Assembly (NCBI GenBank): GCA_050575255.1
Contig: JBNZDD010013726.1
Location: forward strand, 4,175,036 to 4,239,035
Reading direction: 5' to 3'
Source: Harriotta raleighana
Taxonomy: Eukaryota
DNA length: 64,000 nucleotides
The position numbers and the translations under genes are program-made. The notes beneath the pieces are model-generated. The model was not told where the DNA came from, did not search any database, and saw only the letters and a list, made by a program, of their open reading frames with translations. This document shows, one piece after another, positions 3,530 to 54,599 of the stretch (position 1 is its first letter; each line of letters starts with the position of its first letter).

Positions 3530-3869
3530 GAGCTTCTGTAGCTCAGTGGTTAGAGCACTCGCCTTACATGCCTTACAAGCATGAGACCTGTGTTCGAATC
3601 CAGGCAGATCAGGGCGAAACCTTGGGCAAGTTTCCTTACTCCACACGCCTAATAATAATCCCTCCAAAAAAACCACAATAATAAAATTGGTCATTTCAAT
3701 CTATGACTGTTGTGACACTGTTGGGACGCTGCTGTGCGCAATTGGCTGCCGCGTTCCGCCCACAAATATACAGTCAATTCACTTTACAGTATATTCTGTG
3801 AAGCGCTTTGGGACGTTGATAAGATGTGAAAAGCGCTATATCAAATGCAAGGATTATTATTATTATTAT
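3530..3869 (+). mobile_element. tRNA-derived SINE with L2-type tail, full length (young subfamily)
   Basis: A box TAGCTCAGTGG, B box GTTCGAATCC, body, stem-loop tail gcgctttgggacgttgataagatgtgaaaagcgc, (TTA)n end. More than 15 related copies in the window. Confidence 0.92.
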
Positions 3870-4011
3870 ATACTATCAAGTACAGGTATATTACATTTTC
3901 TACTGATGCCAATGATATTACTCCATTTGATCCATCACAAACAACCCATTAGAAAATCAACAGATTCTGCAGGAGCATTGGTTTGTTTTAGAACTAGATT
4001 TAATTATTTAA

Positions 4012-5423: not shown

Positions 5424-6295
5424 GACTCGACCCAAGGACCAGCTGCCATGGAGCTGGAGCGGCGGGGACACGGGTCTGAGCGGCGGGGACACGGGTCTGA
5501 GCGGCGGAGACACGGGCCTGAGCGGATGCCGGGTGTGTGCGGTGGAGCAGGAGGAGGGGGGCCGGGAGAGCACCCAGCCTCCCAGTGAGGAGGAGGTGGA
5601 TCAGCAGATGCATCCACGGGGATCGACCGCATCGATGCCCTGGTTCCCGTCTTTTTGAAGGTGGTTGAGGCGGGCGGCGAGGACAGGGAGCTGGACTGTT
5701 GTTAATTGTTGTTGTTGTTTCTTCTGTTGTTGCTTTTGCTTATTATTGTTGATGATGTTTGTTGTTGTTGTTTGCCCCCCCCCCTGCCCCCTGACCTTTT
5801 CCCCTCCTTTTTCTTCTTCCCTCTCTCCCTTTCCCCCCTTCCCTCCCTCTTCCCTCTTGCCCCCCTTTCTCCTTGGTTTCCCTCCCTCCACCTTTCCCCC
5901 CTNNNNNNNNNNTGGTTTCCCTCCCTCCACCTTTCCCCCCTTCTTCCCCCTTGCCACCATTTCTCCCTCCTTGTCCTCCTTGATTTCCCCCTTGTCCTCC
6001 TTTCTCCGCCCTTTCTCCGTCCTTTTTCCTCACTGATTTTACCCCACCCGCGTTTTCCTCCGTCTCCCCCCTTGTCCCTTTTTCCCTCTTCCTTCCCTGG
6101 CCCCATTTCCGTGTGTGTTTGTGGGACGCTGCTGTGCGCAATTTGGCTGCCGCGTTTCGCCCACAAATATACAGTCAGTTCTTTCCTGCTTTTCTTCCCC
6201 CGACCCCTCCCTCCACTTGACTGTACAGCGCCTTGGGACGTCCTCCTGACGTGAAAGGCGCTATATAAATATAATATATATAAAATAAATAAAAA
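5424..6295 (+). mobile_element. Composite non-autonomous retroelement, copy 1
   Basis: GC-rich head with a 21-bp tandem repeat, shared core CTGGTTCCCG...GGCGGCGAGGACAGGGAG, (GTT)-rich tract, C/T-rich tract, SINE-body segment (6116-6180) and L2 stem-loop tail (6222-6270). Homologous to 40101-40570 and 49963-50970. The 5' boundary is approximate. Confidence 0.75.
5457..5525 (+). repeat. 21-bp tandem repeat, about 3 copies (GAGCGGCGGGGACACGGGTCT)
   Basis: Directly visible. The homologous copy near 40101 has a single unit. Confidence 0.9.
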
Positions 6296-16815: not shown

Positions 16816-16859
16816 TTTGTAAGATGCAAAATTGGTCTAGACTGACCTGGAATAATGTG

Positions 16860-17182
16860 TAATAATAATAATAATAATCCTTGCATTTGATATAGCGCTT
16901 TTCGCATCTTATCGACGTCCCAAAGCACTTCACAGAATATACTGCAAAGTGAATTGACTGTATATTTGTGGGCGGAACATGGCAGCCAATTGCGCACAGC
17001 AGTGTCCCACAAACAGTCATGGATTGAAATGACCAATTTTTATTATTGTGGGTTTTTTGAAGGGATTATTATTAGGCGTGTGGAGTAAGGAAACTTGCCC
17101 AAGGTTTTGCCCTGACTTGCATGGATTTGAACACATCTCATGCTTGTAAGGTGCGTGCTCTAACTACCAAGCTACAGGAACT
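16860..17182 (-). mobile_element. tRNA-derived SINE, full length
   Basis: Reverse complement of the 3530-3869 type. Confidence 0.92.
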
Positions 17183-17231
17183 GTATAATAATGTGTACAA
17201 TGTATAAAGTTAATCCTGGGTCACAGAGGTT

Positions 17232-24221: not shown

Positions 24222-25300
24222 TAAGAACATAAGAACATAAGAATTAGGAGCAGGAGTAGGCCATTCGGCCCTTCGAGCCTGCCCCACCATTCAATAAGAT
24301 CATGGCTGATCTTCTGACCTAACTCTAATTACCTGCCCAATCCCCATATCCCTTAATCCCTCTATTTAAAAAAAAATATCTATCAGTCTCAGCCTTGAAA
24401 ATGTTCAAGGACTAAGCATCTACAGCCATCTGGGGCAGTGAATTCCATAAATTCACTACCCTTTGAGTGAAGAAATATTTCCTCAACTCTGTTCCAAAGG
24501 GCTGACCCTTAATTTTAAAAATGTGACCCCTGGTTATAGATTCTCCTACCAGGGGAAACAGTCCCTCAGTGTCTAATTTATCCAGCCCTTTAAGAATCTT
24601 ATATGTTTCAATAAGATCCTCTCTAATTCTTCTGTACTCTGAAGAATACAGCCCTAGTTTATTCAACCTATCCTCATAGGTCAGTCCCCTCATCCCAGGA
24701 AATAACCTAGTGAATCTACGCTGCATTCCTCCAAGGCAAGTATGTCCTTTTTTAAATAAGGAGACCAAAACTGCACACAATACTCTAGGTGCGGTCTCAC
24801 CAAAGCCCTATACAGTTGCAGCTCCTGTGGCTTTGTGGTTAGAGCACTCGCCTTACAAGCATGAGACCTGTGTTTGAATCCAGGCAGATCAGGGCGAAAC
24901 CTTGGGCAAGTTTCCTTACTCCACATGCCTAATAATAATCCCTCCAAAAAAACCACAATAATAAAATTGGTCATTTCAATCCACGACTGTTTGTGGGACA
25001 CTGCTGTGCGCAATTGGCTGCCGCGTTCCGCCTACAAATATACAGTCAATTCACTTTACAGTATATTCTGTGAAGCTCTTTGGGACGTCAATAAGATGTG
25101 AAAAGCGCTATATCAAATGCAAGGATTATTATTATTATTATTGCAGCAAGACTTCCCTCCTCTTGTACTCTAAACCTTTTGAAATGAATGCTAGCATGCT
25201 GTTCGCCTTCTTAGTTACTTGCTGCACCTGCAAACTAACTTTTTGAGACTGGTGTACAAGAACACCCAAATCCCTTTGAATACTAACGCTGTCTAACCTT
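24222..25300 (-). mobile_element. CR1 LINE 3' portion, interrupted by a SINE
   Basis: ORF2 peptides QRDLGVLVH...KANSMLAFI, LYRALVRPHLEYCVQFWSPY, QRRFTRLFPGMRGLTYEDRL, TRGH...FFTQRVVNLWNSLP; (AAGAACAT)n tail at 24222-24243. Confidence 0.93.
24823..25140 (+). mobile_element. tRNA-derived SINE inserted into CR1
   Basis: Full SINE; TTGCAGC at 24816-24822 and 25141-25147 is a target-site duplication. Confidence 0.93.
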
Positions 25301-33299: not shown

Positions 33300-33318
33300 G
33301 TGGAAGTCCTATACCTCA
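33300..33318 (+). mobile_element. Detached 5' head of a tRNA-derived SINE (remainder at 33918)
   Basis: gtggaagtcctatacctca aligns to the SINE start gtggagtcctgtagctca. Confidence 0.6.
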
Positions 33319-33918
33319 ACAACAACAACAACAACAAAATTACATTTATAGAGCGCGTTTCACGTCAGGAGGACGTCCCAAGGCGCTGGACAGATGATTT
33401 AAGACCCGAGCAGGGGGAAATGTTCGGGGCGAGGGGGGAGGGGGAGGGTGGGAGCAAGGAGGAGGTAGAGAGTCGAGAGGGGAGCTGAAGGCACGGTCGA
33501 AGAGAAAGGTCTTGAGACCGGCCTTGAAAGAGGAAAGGGAGGGAGCGAGGCGAAGGCACTGGGGGATGGAGTTCCAGAGCCTGGGGGCTGAGCAGCTGAA
33601 AGCCCGGCCGCCAATGGTAGGGCGGTTAGGGCAGGGGATGTGGAGCAGACCAGAGCCAGAGGAACGGAGGGTACGGGCAGGTAGATAGGGGGATATTAGG
33701 TCGGAGAGGTAGGAGGGAGCAAGGCCGTGAATGGCCTTGTAGGTGAGGATGAGGATCTTGAAGTCGATCCTCTGGGGGATGGGGAGCCAGTGGAGACGAG
33801 CGAGGGTGGGAGTGATGTGGTCTCGAAGCCTGGTGCGGGAGAGAACACGAGCTGCAGAGTTCTGGATGATCTGCAGCTTGTGGATGGAGGAGCCGGGAAG
33901 GCCCACGAGGAGAGAGTT
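33319..33918 (-). mobile_element. L2 LINE 3' 600 bp, little decayed
   Basis: Open ORF2 C-terminus NSLLVGLPGSSIHKLQIIQNSAARVL...LHWLPIPQRIDFKIL...GGRAFSCSAPRLWNSIP...FKAGLKTFLF, stem-loop tail, (GTT)n. Confidence 0.94.
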
Positions 33919-34200
33919 CAGTGGTTAGAGCACTCGCCTTACAAGCGAGAGACCTTGGTTCGATTCCAGACAGATCAAGTTTCCTTACTCTACGTGCCTA
34001 ATAATAATCCCACAAAAAAAACAATAATAAATTGGTCATTTCAATTCATGACTGTTTATGGGCCACTACTGTGCGCAATTAGCTGCCGTATTTCACCCAC
34101 AAATATAGTCAATTCACTTTACAGTATATTCTGTGAAGCGCTTTGAGATATCTAGAAAAAGTGAAAACTGCTATATGAAATGGAAGGATTATTATTATAA
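33918..34200 (+). mobile_element. tRNA-derived SINE (portion 3' of the L2 insertion)
   Basis: tcagtggttagagcactcgccttacaagcgagagacc...ggattattatta. Confidence 0.9.
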
Positions 34201-40100: not shown

Positions 40101-40570
40101 TCGAGGACACGGGCCTGGGCGGATGACGGATGTGTGCGGTGGAGCGGGAGGAGGAGGGCCGGGAGCACCCAGCGTCCCAGTGGGGAAGAGGAGAATCGGC
40201 CAGTGCCATTGATGACCTGGTTCCCGCCTTTTTGGAGATGGTCCGGGCGGGCGGCGAGGACAGGGAGCGGGGGCTGGACAGTCATTAATTGTTGTTGTGT
40301 TTTCTATTGTTGTTGAGTTTGTTTATTATCATTGATTGTTATTTACTTTTTTGTTTATTATTGTTGATGATGTTTGTTGTTGTTTACACTCCCCCTGCCC
40401 CCTGATTTTTCTCCCTTTTTATTCTTCTCCTTCCCTCTCCCTTTCCTCCCTCTTCCCCCTTCCCCNTTCCCTGAGCCCTCCCCCCATACTTGGCTGTACA
40501 GCGCTTTGGGACGTCCTCCCGACGTGAAAGGCGCTTTATAAATAAAATTTTGATTGATTGATTGATAGAT
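40101..40570 (+). mobile_element. Composite non-autonomous retroelement, copy 2
   Basis: Same head as 5505-5600, shared core, GTT and C/T tracts, tail ctgtacagcgctttgggacgtcctcccgacgtgaaaggcgctttataaataaaattt(TGAT)n. Confidence 0.8.
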
Positions 40571-41814
40571 GTTACTGTTGTTGGAGCCTTTGCAACAGGC
40601 TTAATTATACGTTCCCACAGCAACTCTCACCCGAATAATCTAGATCCATGTTGCCTTAAAACTAGATTCTCTTTGAAGGTCACAAAGCACAAGGATTGGG
40701 CATTTTAGGCAATCATTGAAAAAAATTAGGCAATGTTTTAACTTCTTTGGTGCCAACAAATCAAACTTTGTCAAAGAATTTTCAAGTATTTTCCAATACT
40801 GTAAAGTAATTTGCATGCAATATGTTATTTCAGTTGCATTAGCACACTTCATTAATATGGTATATCTCCAAAGATTATACATACAAAAATATAAATGATT
40901 GACTTTGTGATATTTTTCACAAGTTAAATTGATTTCAAGGTCAGGCTCTCTTCCCGGGTGGCACGGGAACTGGATGACTGAGAGCACTATAATAGTCACT
41001 TCTGAGACTTGGCCTTTAACATCTAAGAACAATGTAATAAAACTTTGGAAAAACACTTATGTGTTTATTGTTTCATTTTCTTTACATTAGTAACAAGCAA
41101 TAAGTACTGATCAGAATGGATGAACACTGGTGTTACACTGAGAAATTCATCGCTCCAGATTTGCTTAATCTACTCATTTGTGGAGATGTGTTTCATACCT
41201 CTCTATTAGCAATGTCATAATTGTTATCTGTGGGAACTGAGATTATTCTTGTATTCCACCCTCTGTCTCATATTATATGCAGGCAGCTGCTACCTCAGCA
41301 ATGAGACATCACTGATCTCAATTTTTATTTCCTGTGACTAAATAAATAGAAAAATAAATTAAAATTTACTCTATGCTTGTGCTATGGTAAAACAGTCAAG
41401 ACTTATTGTTTTGGTTCTGAATGGCAGTCTGCAGTAGCACAGATGAATTATTGAATGGGGTAGAAGTTCAGCAGTGGTTCCACACAGAGAAATTCATTGA
41501 CGTCAAAATCAGTGAAAAATGTATAATATCAAAAAGTCAATCAATTATTTTCTTGTATACATAATCTTTAGGGATATACCATATCAATTAAGTATTTCAA
41601 ATCTGATGAAATAACATACTGCTGTATATCCAAATGAGTTTATTGAAAAATAGTCCCCACTTTAACACAACAAATTCAAGTTTTACCTTCATTATCCCTT
41701 ATGGGTGTATTTGTTATGGTATAAACACAGTAATAACATATTATCTTTTATCCTAGGTATGATCAGTTTTTAAAATACAAATTTAGCCAGTGGACATTCT
41801 CTTGCAATTGTTCA

Positions 41815-48600: not shown

Positions 48601-48723
48601 TCTTTATTTAGGAGCTGTGACAACAAGTTTTAGCTGAGCCAACCTCACCTGACATCACACAGCAGAAATGGTGGAAAGGATCAAATCCAGACCGAACAAT
48701 GAGGTGAGCACTTCCTATGCTAA

Positions 48724-49061
48724 ATAATAATATAATAATAATAATCCTTGCATTTGATATAGCGCTTTTCACATTTTATCAACGTCCCAAAGCGCTTCAC
48801 AGAATATACTGTAAAGTGAATTGACTGTATATTTGTGGGCGGAACGCGGCAGCCAATTGCGCACAGCAGCGTCCCACAAACAGTCATAGATTGAAATGAC
48901 CAATTTTATTATTGTAGTTTTTTTTGAGGGATTATTATTAGGCATGTGGAGTAAGGAAACTTGCCCAAGGTTTCGCCCTGATCTCCCTGGATTCGAACGC
49001 AGGTCTCATGCTTGTAAGGCATGTAAGTCGAGTGCTCTAACCACTGAGCCACAGGAGCTCC
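48724..49061 (-). mobile_element. tRNA-derived SINE, full length (young subfamily)
   Basis: Near-identical reverse complement of 3530-3869. Confidence 0.93.
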
Positions 49062-49962
49062 AAATGTACCAATCAACAAAATTGGAAAACCTGAGAGTTG
49101 TAGTGGCTTTACTATGAATAATGGTTAAATAAATTGTAGCATTGTATCCACATCCAAACATGCTGTAAAATCATTCCCACAACGTGTAGCTAACTATTCA
49201 CAGCCTCTTCTGATATTGGTTAGCTTGCTGAGTAATTGAAAATCAGTGGGACAAATTTTACAAAGATGAAACGTTTCTGTTTAATGAACAAAATCACCAA
49301 ACATGCATAATGAAAAACAAGCAATTATTTTGGAATTTTAATATTTTACATACTATGTATAAGATTTTAACTCTGAAAAGATGAATTGAGCTAAACTGTA
49401 GCTCTATTCCTGATTGGAATCTGCTCTCAACTGTCTTAATTTGGTTTCAGTCAATCAGATCAATGGACAAACTTGCGACAGGGAGCAGACCAACTCTTCT
49501 CAACTGTTTACTCTGTCCATTGTTTATTTACAGTACTGTATTGTAAATACAATTTCATTTCTTATTTTGATACGATTTCCTATGGGTTTTAACATTGAAA
49601 CATTGTGAAATATTTCTATTTAAGCTTAGCCACCAGTAGAATAACCTCAGCACTACAGCCCAAGTCAAGTGCTTTGAGACATGAAAGGCACAATATGAAT
49701 GTAAACTGTATTGTAACTTTATTTTTGCCTGGGCTGCTACATCAATACAGTACAATATATTAGAATTCACCATAAAATTGCTATTAGCAACAACGCCTAT
49801 TTCGCGCCCTCCTCGCATTCCAGTGTACTTAACAGTGGCAGAGCATGACTCCACACCAACAAACCTCTGATGAATGAATAAGTAATAAAGTGAGAATCCA
49901 TCCTAAGCTAGAATGTACATCAGGTAATATTGGCAACAGCCAATTTAGGATTTGAATGCAAC

Positions 49963-50970
49963 ATCAATCAATCAATCAATCAAAATTTAATTTATACAGC
50001 ATCTTTCACGTCGGGTGGACGTCCCAAAGCTGCTGTACAGTCAAGTAGGGATCAGAGCGGGGAGAGGAGAGTAGGGGGGAAAGGAAAGTAGGAAAAAATT
50101 GACTGTATATTTGTGGGCGAAACGCAGCAGCTAAATTGCGCACAGCATTGTCCACAAACAGTCATGGAAGTGGGGTTAGGGGAGAAAGGTGGAAAAGATG
50201 GCAAGGGAAAGGGTAGAGGGAAGGAGAGCAGGAAAAAACAACTGTATGTTTGTGGGCGAAATGCGGCAGCCGAATTGCGCACATAAGTGTCCCACAAACA
50301 GTTGCGGAAGTGAGGCCGGGGGAGAAAAGGGGAAAAGAGGGTAAGGGGGGAGACGGAGGGAAAGACAAGGTGGGGTAAAACCAGGGAGGAGAAAGGGGGG
50401 AGAAAGGGGGGCAAGGGGGAAATCAGGGAGGAATAGGGGGGAGAAAGGGAGGCAAGTGGGAAGAGGGAGGGAAAGGTACATGGGGGGCAAAATCAGGTAG
50501 AAATGGGGAGAAAGGGGGATAAGAAGGAAGAGGGGGTAAGAGGGAAGAGGGAGGGAAGGGGGAAAAGGAGGGAGGGGGAAAGAAGAAGAAAAGGAGGGGG
50601 AAAGGACAGGGGGCAGGAGGGGGGGGGGGACCGAACAACAGCAACAAACAACAATATCAATAACAATAAACAAAAAAAGCGATAGCAACAACAATTAATA
50701 ACAGTCCCGCAACCGCTCCTTGTCCTCGCCGCCCACCTGGACGATATTCAAAAAGGCGGGAACCAGGCCCAGTGTGGTGAAAGGCCCAAAAAACGACCGG
50801 CTCCTCAGTTGGTGACCAGGTGATTCGGTGATGGCCCTGGTACCTCGGACACGGCGTTTCTGTGCCAGTTCGCCCAGTAGCAGCAGCTCGATCGCTGTCG
50901 GGATCTCCCGCGACGAGATGGTCCGCTGCCTGCAGCAATGGAAGATGTCGCCGACCAGCGAGTGCTCAGG
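49963..50970 (-). mobile_element. Composite non-autonomous retroelement, copy 3 (H2B-bearing)
   Basis: On the minus strand: H2B-like head, shared core, GTT tract, C/T tract with two SINE-body segments (about 50100-50165 and 50240-50305), L2 stem-loop tail and (TGAT)n. Confidence 0.8.
50805..50970 (-). pseudogene. Decayed histone H2B-derived coding fragment
   Basis: Minus strand translates HSLVGDIF-HCCRQRTISSREIPTAIELLLLGELA/RNAVSE/GTRAITE versus canonical H2B NSFVNDIF(ERIAGEASRLA)[40 protein letters not shown]. One 11-codon deletion and two compensating frameshifts. Confidence 0.85.
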
Positions 50971-51579
50971 TTACATTTACATTCAGTTGTCCATCTCTCA
51001 AACAAGTTCTACCATTCTAAGTTACGACTTCCTTTACTCAGTCATGAAAGTTTATGTTTCACCTTTGCCGCATCTTTAACAAATTGGTCAACGAATTCTA
51101 TGATGGAAGTACACCAGTACGCTTTTGTTGAATTATCAGTTTAGAAACACCTTATCAGTGGTAGGAACCAAGCAATTATTCACAGAGTTAAATGAGTAAT
51201 TTTTGGCAGTAATTACATCAGGTAAAAGAGAGAATCAATATTGCCCTCATCCCAAACCTTTGTAAACACCGCAAATTGTAAAACCTACAGAATGTATTTT
51301 ACCATTACACACACTGTGTTTTTTTTAATCTGTTATAACCAACCATAAAGGTGGTTTATAGTCTAATTCATATTGACTCAATTTCTGTACTGAAGCGTGG
51401 AGAAAAATGAATTCAAATCGTCTCATCAAAATTCTGTCTGCTACAGGCAGCAAAGTGAATTGATTCCAGCTTGTACAGGAAGGTAGATTTTAATTACTCT
51501 GAAATTGAGAGACGAGTTGGAAATGTACAGAAATCAGGAAAGATAAATTCTGTAAATAAACTGGTTTATTAGTCTGATT

Positions 51580-51920: not shown

Positions 51921-52559
51921 AATTGTCTCCTTCACAAAGACGATCAGTTGGTCCTTTTATTTTTATTGACTCAATTACTGCAGAGCATTTTATAGTATTA
52001 CCTGTAATGTTATATATTATGTTAGGGATAGCATTATTCCTTGATAAGACTCCATGATAAAATATTTTATAGCATCCAAACAGAATGAGAACATTATCTT
52101 GAACATTAAAGACCCAAATGACACTGTTGTCATATAATATGGAGGCATGTCTATTAGTTCCTTTCTGTTAGTTCCTTTCTCTTTCTATGTTCATTTGAAC
52201 ATGAGAAGTTGTGTTCCATATTAATTTATTATCAATAATNAATTGTCTCCTTCACAAAGACGATCAGTTGGTCCTTTTATTTTTATTGACTCAATTACTG
52301 CAGAGCATTTTATAGTATTACCTGTAATGTTATATATTATGTTAGGGATAGCATTATTCCTTGATAAGACTCCATGATAAAATATTTTATAGCATCCAAA
52401 CAGAATGAGAACATTATCTTGAACATTAAAGACCCAAATGACACTGTTGTCATATAATATGGAGGCATGTCTATTAGTTCCTTTCTGTTAGTTCCTTTCT
52501 CTTTCTATATTCATTTGAACATGAGAAGTTGTGTTCCATATTAATTTATTATCAATAAT
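51921..52559. repeat. 319-bp tandem duplication separated by one N (probable assembly overlap)
   Basis: 51921-52239 is repeated at 52241-52559; I noticed only one difference (ctatgttc vs ctatattc). N at 52240. Confidence 0.85.
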
Positions 52560-54599
52560 AATTCATTAATAATCAATTATTGCAGAACTGTTGAAAATCA
52601 AGAATCACAGACCACTGTGGGAAATGAATGCACCTCATCCTGCAGATAGTGTATCCAAATTCTTGCCATCTATTCTTCATAGAAAATTGATGTGCTGCAA
52701 AATGCTCTCAGCATGATAGGACAGTATATAAAATGTAAAAATCCTATTACTGTATTATTGTTAGAATTATAACTTTAACGGCTGTGTCAGTTAATGACAA
52801 CTGTAGGTATATTGAGAAATCATGTGTTTGTAGAGATTTTCACTCCAGGCGTTGGATGTGGTACAGAAGTTAATTCAGCTATATAAATATAGGGTCCAAA
52901 TATTAGACTTACAATCCTACTACAGAATGTCTTAAATGTACGTGTGGCATGAAGCAGCAGAATATCAATACTGCACCTGCTTCTATATTATTAATATGTC
53001 CACTTCAATCCTTTCTATAAAAAGATTTTTGAAAAATATTGGAAAGTAGCCTCTCAGACTTTCTTGCCTTTCATGAACATGAACACGAGGGAATTGATGG
53101 TTCCGCTACATTGACCAAACAATAGATAGAGTGGATGCACAAAACCAGGCACAAATATCCCTTATTTTATGTTTTACATTAATTTCCCACTATCTTATTG
53201 GGCAATAGCCTGTTATCTATGGGTAAAGCTTCAGTGTTTCAATTTTAAAAAAAACTTTCATCTAGATTTATTTTTGTGCTTTTGTACTTTGTGATCTAAT
53301 TAGGAAAATTGTTGGCAGCTGAGGAAGAGACAAGCAATCGTGAACATCCTATGGGCACAGCAGGCACTCAATATCTAGTTGAGTAACATTGCATCCAATT
53401 GTTAGTGGAATTGTAGTGAATGTGTATTCAATCCTGGATAATCTAGTGATAAATACATTTCTGAATCTATGGTGAAATAGTAACATCTGTGTCCAATAGA
53501 AGTGTTATCTATTATTCAGTAGATGCATCATGCTTTTCATCCTTGGCAATCCAACAAGAACACAACTCAGCCAGCTTTTTGGAAGCAGCTATCTGATGCC
53601 GCGGCTTTTAAAACCTGCAACTCTTGCATTAAAATGATGTACCATAGTCTCGACGCACCTCAGAAGTCTATTAGAGATAATATTTTCCCATCTCAATTGT
53701 TGCCCCATGTTTGTGTCACAAGGAGTAGACTATCCGCATCCAGTTAGCTACAGTGTAAGATAGTGCTATGCACAAATTGGCCTCTGTCTTGCCCACAAAA
53801 TAGTCACTACAATTCACAGTAAAATCCTATGAAAGGCTTTCAGATATCTAGAAGACATGATCAGGCTCTAGATCAAATGCAAGAATTATCATGACCCAAA
53901 GTCCAATCCGATTCTACAAGGTAGACATGGAAACAGAAAATGGTGACACAAATGCCAAAATCACAGTTTATGGGTTACCTTCAGTCATAATAAAACAGTA
54001 AAACTGTTTACTTCTTTTCAAGCCATTTCACTTCATCAAAATGTCACTGTATTAACAAACCACTGGTTCAATTCAGTGGTATTGACTGACTGTTCCATGA
54101 TGTGGAGAAAACAACAAGTTCAGCTGCAATAACCAATCACTGCTTATAAAAACTAATAGTCAACCTGTCAGACAGACCAAGATATCTAACCCAATACTTC
54201 TATTTCTAGCCACCTGTGTCTTCAATCAGATGATTTATTATGTATATTTTGCTGTCCTTTTTTATCTTGTTTCATTCCACAGTATCGGGGGATTTGTGTA
54301 CATACTTCCCTAGATATATTAAAAAATGCACAGTTGTATTCAGAGGGAAAGCAGCATTACTCAACTTAAGCTATAGAAATTAATCAGTCCTCTTTTCAAG
54401 GCACATCATGTTAATTTCCTCATGTGTTCCTATTGTCATTCAACTAAGGCTTCTTCTGTACTTATCATAAAACTACTATAGCAAACATATTAAGATCCTC
54501 ATCATAGATAAATATTTTTCAACTTAAAGTTCATGAGGTAGCTGCTCCTATTGTTTTTTTATGTAAGGGGCAGCAATATTTAAAGTCCTCTACGGCCTC

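Follow-up and report, generated by a model that had tools for sequence, protein, structure and literature searches.

The genome of Harriotta raleighana contains a dispersed family of non-autonomous retroposons which very probably combines coding sequence of a histone H2B variant, 5' coding sequence of RUNDC1, simple tracts, tRNA-SINE blocks and a LINE stem-loop, with a likely L2-type LINE acting in trans and a likely Pol II start of its own. The element is a composite non-autonomous retroposon built from coding sequence and is distinct from both SINEs and SVAs. We analysed it starting from one copy in the window, the whole 64,000-nt stretch of DNA studied here; the features of this copy, of two younger relatives and of the likely partner LINE are listed in Table 1.

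Table 1. Element copies and likely partner LINE in the window
Feature	Position	Strand	Remarks
3' half of H2B-variant CDS	50806..50968	-	5'-truncated; class D: 33-nt deletion, inherited -1, sublineage +1
TGA created by H2B/RUNDC1 junction	50807-50805	-	
RUNDC1 N-terminal coding remnant	50704..50805	-	~110 nt lost internally relative to class A
(GTT)n-like tract	50630..50703	-	Common to family
C/T-rich tract	50311..50629	-	Common to family
tRNA-SINE-derived block, copy 1	50240..50310	-	
tRNA-SINE-derived block, copy 2	50097..50169	-	
LINE-type 3' tail with stem-loop	49982..50048	-	
(ATTG)n terminal repeat	49962..49981	-	No target-site duplication seen
Window copy 1	5424..6295	+	5'-truncated Y member: GC-rich insert with 21-nt VNTR, RUNDC1 remnant, same tail
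Window copy 2	40104..40565	+	5'-truncated; by eye, belongs to a second Y variant, that of L272
Young LINE 3' end, likely partner	33310..33920	-	Longer copy L251 carries RVT_1

The window copy belongs to a dispersed family

As the first-pass annotation had reported, the minus strand holds a stop-free frame of 91 codons without a start codon (50970-50695). This frame matched PDB H2B chains over residues 9-49 (E ~4e-6), in agreement with the proposed likeness to the C-terminal half of H2B, the span of homology being corrected to ~50968-50806. Pfam gave no domain match for this short eroded piece. The 33-nt deletion read earlier from the sequence, which is that of class D, proved exact against the class C consensus. 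The reported pair of +1 and -1 frameshifts was also found, but neither is peculiar to this copy: the -1 shift occurs in most class B-D copies and the +1 shift in 7/88 junction copies compared. Because the deletion and frameshifts are inherited and there is no protein constraint (pN/pS ~1.1), the 91-codon frame is incidental and without significance. The window copy is a 5'-truncated member of class D. Note that at window 51921-52563 a 320-bp stretch is repeated almost perfectly in tandem, the two units meeting at an N, and that this is probably an assembly artefact; N-seamed duplications like it are present at several loci.

The H2B/core junction was found at 443 places in the genome, compared with 1 for the reversed control (20-nt pattern, at most 1 mismatch), indicating a family and not a one-off fusion. 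As this pattern recovered 45/55 copies found by other searches, 500 or more copies is a fair lower estimate. For the window stretch 50700-50975 there were 1723 candidates in the 1.10-Gb genome; the non-self copies among the 40 that were scored were 84-92% identical, copy samples being biased toward best matches. The 5' flanks of 87 copies were unshared save in two clusters (L084/L091 and L155/L158/L161/L162), as expected of the histone-bearing, LINE-tailed non-autonomous family that had been put forward. The 3' end is fixed and carries a simple repeat, and 5' truncation varies among copies. Target-site duplications of at least 6 nt were seen in 2/28 copies versus 1/28 in the control. L2/CR1 insertions usually have short or absent target-site duplications.

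The copies L155, L158, L161 and L162, to which L154 and L160 can be added by core sequence, are diverged, lie on small contigs and have flanks 91-96% alike; here the element copy is carried within a larger duplicated unit. By eye, the old class A-like copies L080/L083 and L088/L090/L096 have an apparently common upstream flank, which suggests secondary duplication. No element-derived protein of another species was recognised among 120 of 1986 matches listed (8 sequences examined), a search that is weak on distribution. We found no earlier description of an H2B/RUNDC1 family in the literature; Repbase and Dfam lay outside the search, and an unannotated entry there is possible. In PMC5499810, a study of holocephalan SINEs, histone comes up solely in connection with methylation.

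The head derives from a divergent H2B variant

Other copies reach ~200 nt further 5' than the window copy, and likeness to H2B is greater in older copies. The best chondrichthyan protein match of the head was the 'late histone H2B.L4-like' of C. milii (XP_042202152.1), to which the class A consensus is identical at 72/83 aa. Comparison with the three H2B types of the Harriotta genome gave 61-62/85 aa, and both canonical H2B and the L045 variant were rejected as donors on this basis. Judged by these protein identities, the source of the head is a divergent H2B variant, as had been considered before. The expectation of fuller H2B coding sequence in longer copies held in part: most of the CDS is there, but the first ~33 codons are missing in all full-length copies seen. 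One class A copy, L063, has kept an open H2B frame (Pfam Histone, E 1e-12).

A pattern for the C-terminus of the variant led to L292 (1073-2140; G000:C13655 ~141.35-142.42 kb), where a copy of the parent type is present at full length, though decayed. It has a C/T-rich UTR of ~330 nt, followed by a 5'-truncated element piece with LINE tail, and an AT-rich flank upstream. L292 is either a second independent H2B/tail chimera or the product of a later adjacent insertion. The 3-kb locus surrounding this copy showed no histone stem-loop. Elements start inside the H2B N-tail codons, at ~codon 33-35 of L292, and their H2B part breaks off within the penultimate codon, the join with RUNDC1 giving rise to the TGA; the 3' UTR of L292 differs in sequence from the element. 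With these features, the suggestion that the element is the 3' UTR of the H2B-variant gene finds no support.

An intact parent H2B gene was not found in the gappy assembly, with 150 of 600 candidates scored. The same search gave ~140 H2B-like matches outside histone genes, which would mislead histone annotation in the Harriotta genome. The parent was not assigned to H2B.K, which has an intron that L292 cannot show. The loci L068, L073 and L064 are ordinary decayed H2B and H2A copies without element tail. For a second H2B of non-canonical type, whose 3' region is long and C/T-rich (L045/L124 and L047, G000:C13217), Rfam gave no stem-loop at gathering score; a degenerate hairpin was seen by eye ~500 nt downstream. 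Three H3 genes lie in tandem on the same contig.

The core is RUNDC1 coding sequence

The core derives from RUNDC1, from the stretch that encodes its N-terminus (E 4e-7, 81%, C. milii XP_042199301.1). It is ~110 nt longer in class A, where the consensus reads RUNDC1 residues ~37-110. The first-pass annotation had overlooked this origin, as well as the descent of window copies 1 and 2 from the histone-headed form. Three copies (L084, L091 and L095, the first two with common flanks) are without H2B, and their RUNDC1 match extends further 5'. This suggests that a RUNDC1-headed forerunner may have preceded the H2B-headed form. The host RUNDC1 gene is on contig C13201, where neither RUNDC1 exon 1 nor an H2B adjoining RUNDC1 was found in 25 kb (gaps present); judging from the start of the next exon, residues 1-130 would constitute exon 1. 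In the old copy L063, an extra copy of the 5' leader motif lies within the RUNDC1 part (~1050-1120).

Subfamilies form a ladder without protein constraint

Among 88 junction copies, the 66 with a head of at least 200 nt were classed as A (4), B (16), C (30) and D (16), so that class A rests on only 4 long-headed copies; the other 22, including the window copy, were left out of the head alignment. Note that A-D are rule-based labels and not clean clades, and that the bootstrap is rough and not settled. The tree proceeds from the host genes as a ladder through A, B, early C and late C/D (support 100/98, 98/98, 99/93 and 97/84). L087 groups with B, and the L070 group forms a supported side branch (99/96). 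Divergence from the class consensus (B 10.9, C 12.0, D 10.7%) does not separate these classes, and their order therefore rests on the tree and shared indels.

By a crude count, pN/pS from A to C is 1.12, compared with 0.32 between host genes. The subfamilies thus diverge from the parent genes step by step with no constraint on the protein. Together with the fixed -1 frameshift and 33-nt deletion, this value led us to reject a functional H2B variant gene with an intact fold under purifying selection. Ordinary H2B processed pseudogenes, each copied from the gene as one mRNA with its own UTR, were also rejected, because derived changes are common to copies along the ladder and RUNDC1 is part of them; L292 alone partly fits that category.

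A young derivative has exchanged the histone fold

Window copies 1 and 2 (compared at 5639-6270 and 40216-40573) share core, C/T tract and tail with the histone-headed copy, as had been noted. They belong to a derivative, Y, for which searches gave 1079 and 793 candidates in the genome, with a mean divergence of 2.2% among the best 30 matches. Full Y copies open like the histone-headed ones, with the leader and the first codons of H2B, and continue with a GC-rich insert of ~380 nt or more. This insert, with its 21-nt VNTR, replaces the histone fold and the junction; the VNTR is absent from histone-headed forms. Two Y variants and two forms of the 5' motif coexist. Y is a younger derivative of the histone-headed form that has kept its 5' end and tail, and it represents the most recent wave. 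The insert was not recognisable as eroded H2B (score 33 versus 28.6 ± 4.4 for shuffles, 53/300 as high), and a search for a third donor gene yielded no protein match in two reading frames.

Tail and likely partner LINE

The tail consists, in order, of (GTT)n, the C/T tract, one or two tRNA-SINE blocks and ~75 nt of LINE 3' end, after which come terminal repeats that are (ATTG)n or AT-rich. This 3' part has an alignment score of 85-89 to the LINE end versus 41-45 to the SINE end. The stem-loop recognised in the first-pass annotation does fold (z -3.4, 0/200 shuffles as good), is conserved and shares its inner hairpin with the LINE end at 33330-33405. The family thus has its 3' end in common with a resident LINE that encodes RT. 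This LINE is young, the best 40 of 2593 candidates being 99-100% identical. The copies of it that were compared (window 33310-33920 and L245-L255) were heavily 5'-truncated, and Pfam gave no match on the C-terminal piece. A C-terminal motif, and the analogy with the L2-2_CM pairing described in PMC5499810, suggest a partner of L2 type. The window also contains an abundant tRNA-headed SINE (3530-3870, 16858-17183, 24811-25145, 48722-49068 and others), which resembles the description of CmiSINE.

The 5' end and a putative internal promoter

A common 5' start is reached by 24/88 copies and by 4/30 Y copies, and the 5'-start pattern had 296 matches in the genome versus 0 for the control. The flank was random beyond -1 in 30/30 loci, of which 2 were histone-headed and most others Y; a few copies share 3-4 nt more beyond the start. 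The element begins with AAGATGGC or AAAATGGC, within histone-tail codons, and this start is YY1/TISU-like: TISU, a YY1 element located at +5 to +30 relative to human start sites (PMC2518114), has AAGATGGC as its core, and so does the YY1 site directing initiation in L1 (PMC2912911). The head has a GC content of 66-70% and a CpG o/e of 1.1, versus 0.35 for the window, and is CpG-island-like. Pol III A/B boxes were absent from the B, C and D consensus and both present in the SINE control, and Rfam gave no match in L063 and L017. On these sequence features, Pol II likely transcribes the element from its own CpG-rich 5' end, which would act as an internal promoter.

Lineage-fixed changes are skewed toward A>G

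Read on the RNA strand and polarised with L292, lineage-fixed changes comprised A>G at 25/61 A versus T>C at 1/40 T (p 6e-5). The strictest polarisation gave 15/43 versus 1/30 (p 0.004), and other lineage counts were 17 vs 1 and 19 vs 1. The near-copies L158, L161 and L162 were left out of the private-mutation counts and, together with the long-branch L171, out of the 19-vs-1, 15/43 and L292-polarised lineage counts.

ADAR disfavours an upstream G, and editing is high in zebrafish gonads (PMC8096273). As a cause of the skew, ADAR editing appears about as probable as RT bias or transcription-linked asymmetry. An origin other than ADAR editing (transcription-linked mutation asymmetry, RT error bias or CpG/purine selection) has, in our judgement, an even chance. 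It would accommodate the mild excess in the RUNDC1 part (A>G 4 then 3, T>C 3 then 0), the opposite leaning of private changes in Y (A>G 2, T>C 9) and the weak result of the unpolarised comparison of L292 with class B (p 0.12). Also on this side, G is rarer 5' of the changed A, as ADAR would have it, but not significantly so (4/25 vs 13/36, p 0.15). Against it stand the size of the polarised skew and a weak enrichment of U/A 5' neighbours of the changed A (p 0.012, post hoc). Moreover, no significant skew was seen among the private mutations of B, C and D or of 45 SINE copies, per-copy changes being mainly C>T and G>A, and T>C should also have risen under GC-biased conversion or CpG selection.

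The founding YY1/TISU motif may have arisen by A>G from Ser/Asn codons of the histone tail, to judge from L292 and the element 5' end. A tentative and rather doubtful extension is that A-to-I edits on germline element RNA, fixed as A>G over rounds of reverse transcription, turned the histone CDS into a CpG-rich internal Pol II promoter. The result would be a SINE-like class that propagates itself with an mRNA coding head, and in which internal cargo is swapped between a fixed initiator and an equally fixed L2 tail. The ladder and the surviving parent-type copy form a polarised series, so that RNA-level and DNA-level mutation are separable and genome-written RNA editing is directly testable.

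Origin of the family

We propose that a 5' piece of RUNDC1 was initially joined to the LINE tail, a stage that the surviving H2B-free copies would represent. A template switch or RNA join would then have put H2B-variant mRNA in place of the RUNDC1 5' part, cutting the penultimate codon. A source copy starting in the histone-tail codons at the YY1/TISU-like motif would have founded A, B, C and D, with loss of coding constraint, and the later lineage Y would have exchanged the histone fold for the VNTR-bearing insert. Reverse transcription would have been provided in trans by the resident L2-type LINE.

The copies might instead descend from a single master locus, where an H2B/RUNDC1 chimera formed by retrocopying and driven by a host promoter evolved in place and shed dead copies never acting as sources. 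The tree is largely ladder-like, as this would require, and GC-rich stretches of the elements often fall in assembly gaps; since RUNDC1 exon 1 and the intact parent H2B are both missing from the gappy assembly, such a locus could be hidden. Nevertheless, we consider it improbable, given the random flanks beyond -1 (apart from the few copies with 3-4 nt more), the supported side branches such as the L070 group and the coexistence of two Y variants and two 5' motif forms. A functional H2B variant gene with an element-ended 3' UTR, the copies being its processed pseudogenes, is very unlikely. The open frame of L063 would suit it, as would the order of full H2B-variant CDS, its own UTR and element tail in L292, and germline H2B variants are known to retropose in mammals (PMC8857922). 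But for B-D and Y this reading is largely refuted by the loss of constraint with frameshift and deletion fixed, the missing N-terminal codons, the junction inside the CDS and the spread of Y even after loss of the histone fold. Spread as DNA, by segmental duplication or within a DNA transposon, is scarcely credible: it would explain the lack of target-site duplications and the two clusters with common flanks, but not the fixed LINE 3' end with its microsatellite, the variable 5' truncation or the unrelated flanks everywhere else.

Comparison with known systems

A retroposon assembled from coding sequence and a stem-loop LINE tail has counterparts, each of which matches it in part. Among holocephalan SINEs, CmiSINE and SacSINE1-CM (partner L2-2_CM; PMC5499810) are likewise non-autonomous with a LINE-derived tail, and the family itself contains blocks of the resident tRNA-SINE. 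By the definition in PMC7245038, the LINE-derived tail fits a strict SINE, but the family has a protein-coding head in place of a tRNA, 5S, 7SL or snRNA head and lacks A/B boxes (B, C and D consensus), and this category was rejected. Tailless histone retropseudogenes, of which 51 human cases are described (PMC5322556), also represent retroposed histone mRNA sequence; as far as that account goes, they have neither a tail nor a family structure.

Like the family, the mRNA/LINE-1 and RNA/LINE-1 chimeras of bioRxiv 10.1101/2025.02.02.635956 have gene sequence on the 5' side and, in the same sense, part of a LINE on the 3' side, brought together by a template switch or by joining of RNAs; L292 resembles such an mRNA/LINE event. 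Those chimeras are described as single events (17 mRNA/lncRNA; each U6 chimera unique), whereas here the chimera became a source and evolved subfamilies. In the platypus, a host RNA fused to a LINE tail was likewise amplified, as snoRTE; there, a snoRNA head is combined with an RTE tail, here an mRNA coding head with a stem-loop LINE tail.

The SVA_F1 (MAST2 exon 1) and pt_SVA_D6 (STK40 exon 1) elements are similarly composite non-autonomous retroposons with a GC-rich 5' head from a gene exon, and the captured exon of SVA_F1 was shown to be an internal promoter (PMC6139936). According to the same source, SVAs use L1 as partner via poly(A), gained their one captured exon by splicing and number 84-94 copies. 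The family has a stem-loop LINE tail, two coding sequences with junctions inside codons, and at least 443 plus ~800 copies. The GC-rich VNTR in Y is a further likeness to SVA, with none in histone-headed forms. An SVA/LAVA composite was rejected, since the tail is not of the poly(A)/L1 type and ends in a stem-loop with (ATTG)n or AT-rich repeats, and the family appears to lack SVA parts. To our knowledge, Alu-like and SINE-R domains are not expected outside primates.

In the accepted view (PMC3747384, PMC7245038), ordinary mRNAs are not copied by stringent LINEs, and small RNA genes supply the heads of SINEs. In the family described here, coding sequence of two genes escaped this rule by gaining a tail and then spread as subfamilies up to a recent wave. 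It represents an independent parallel to SVA_F1 in a cartilaginous fish, but one that is probably L2-type and is built from coding exons.
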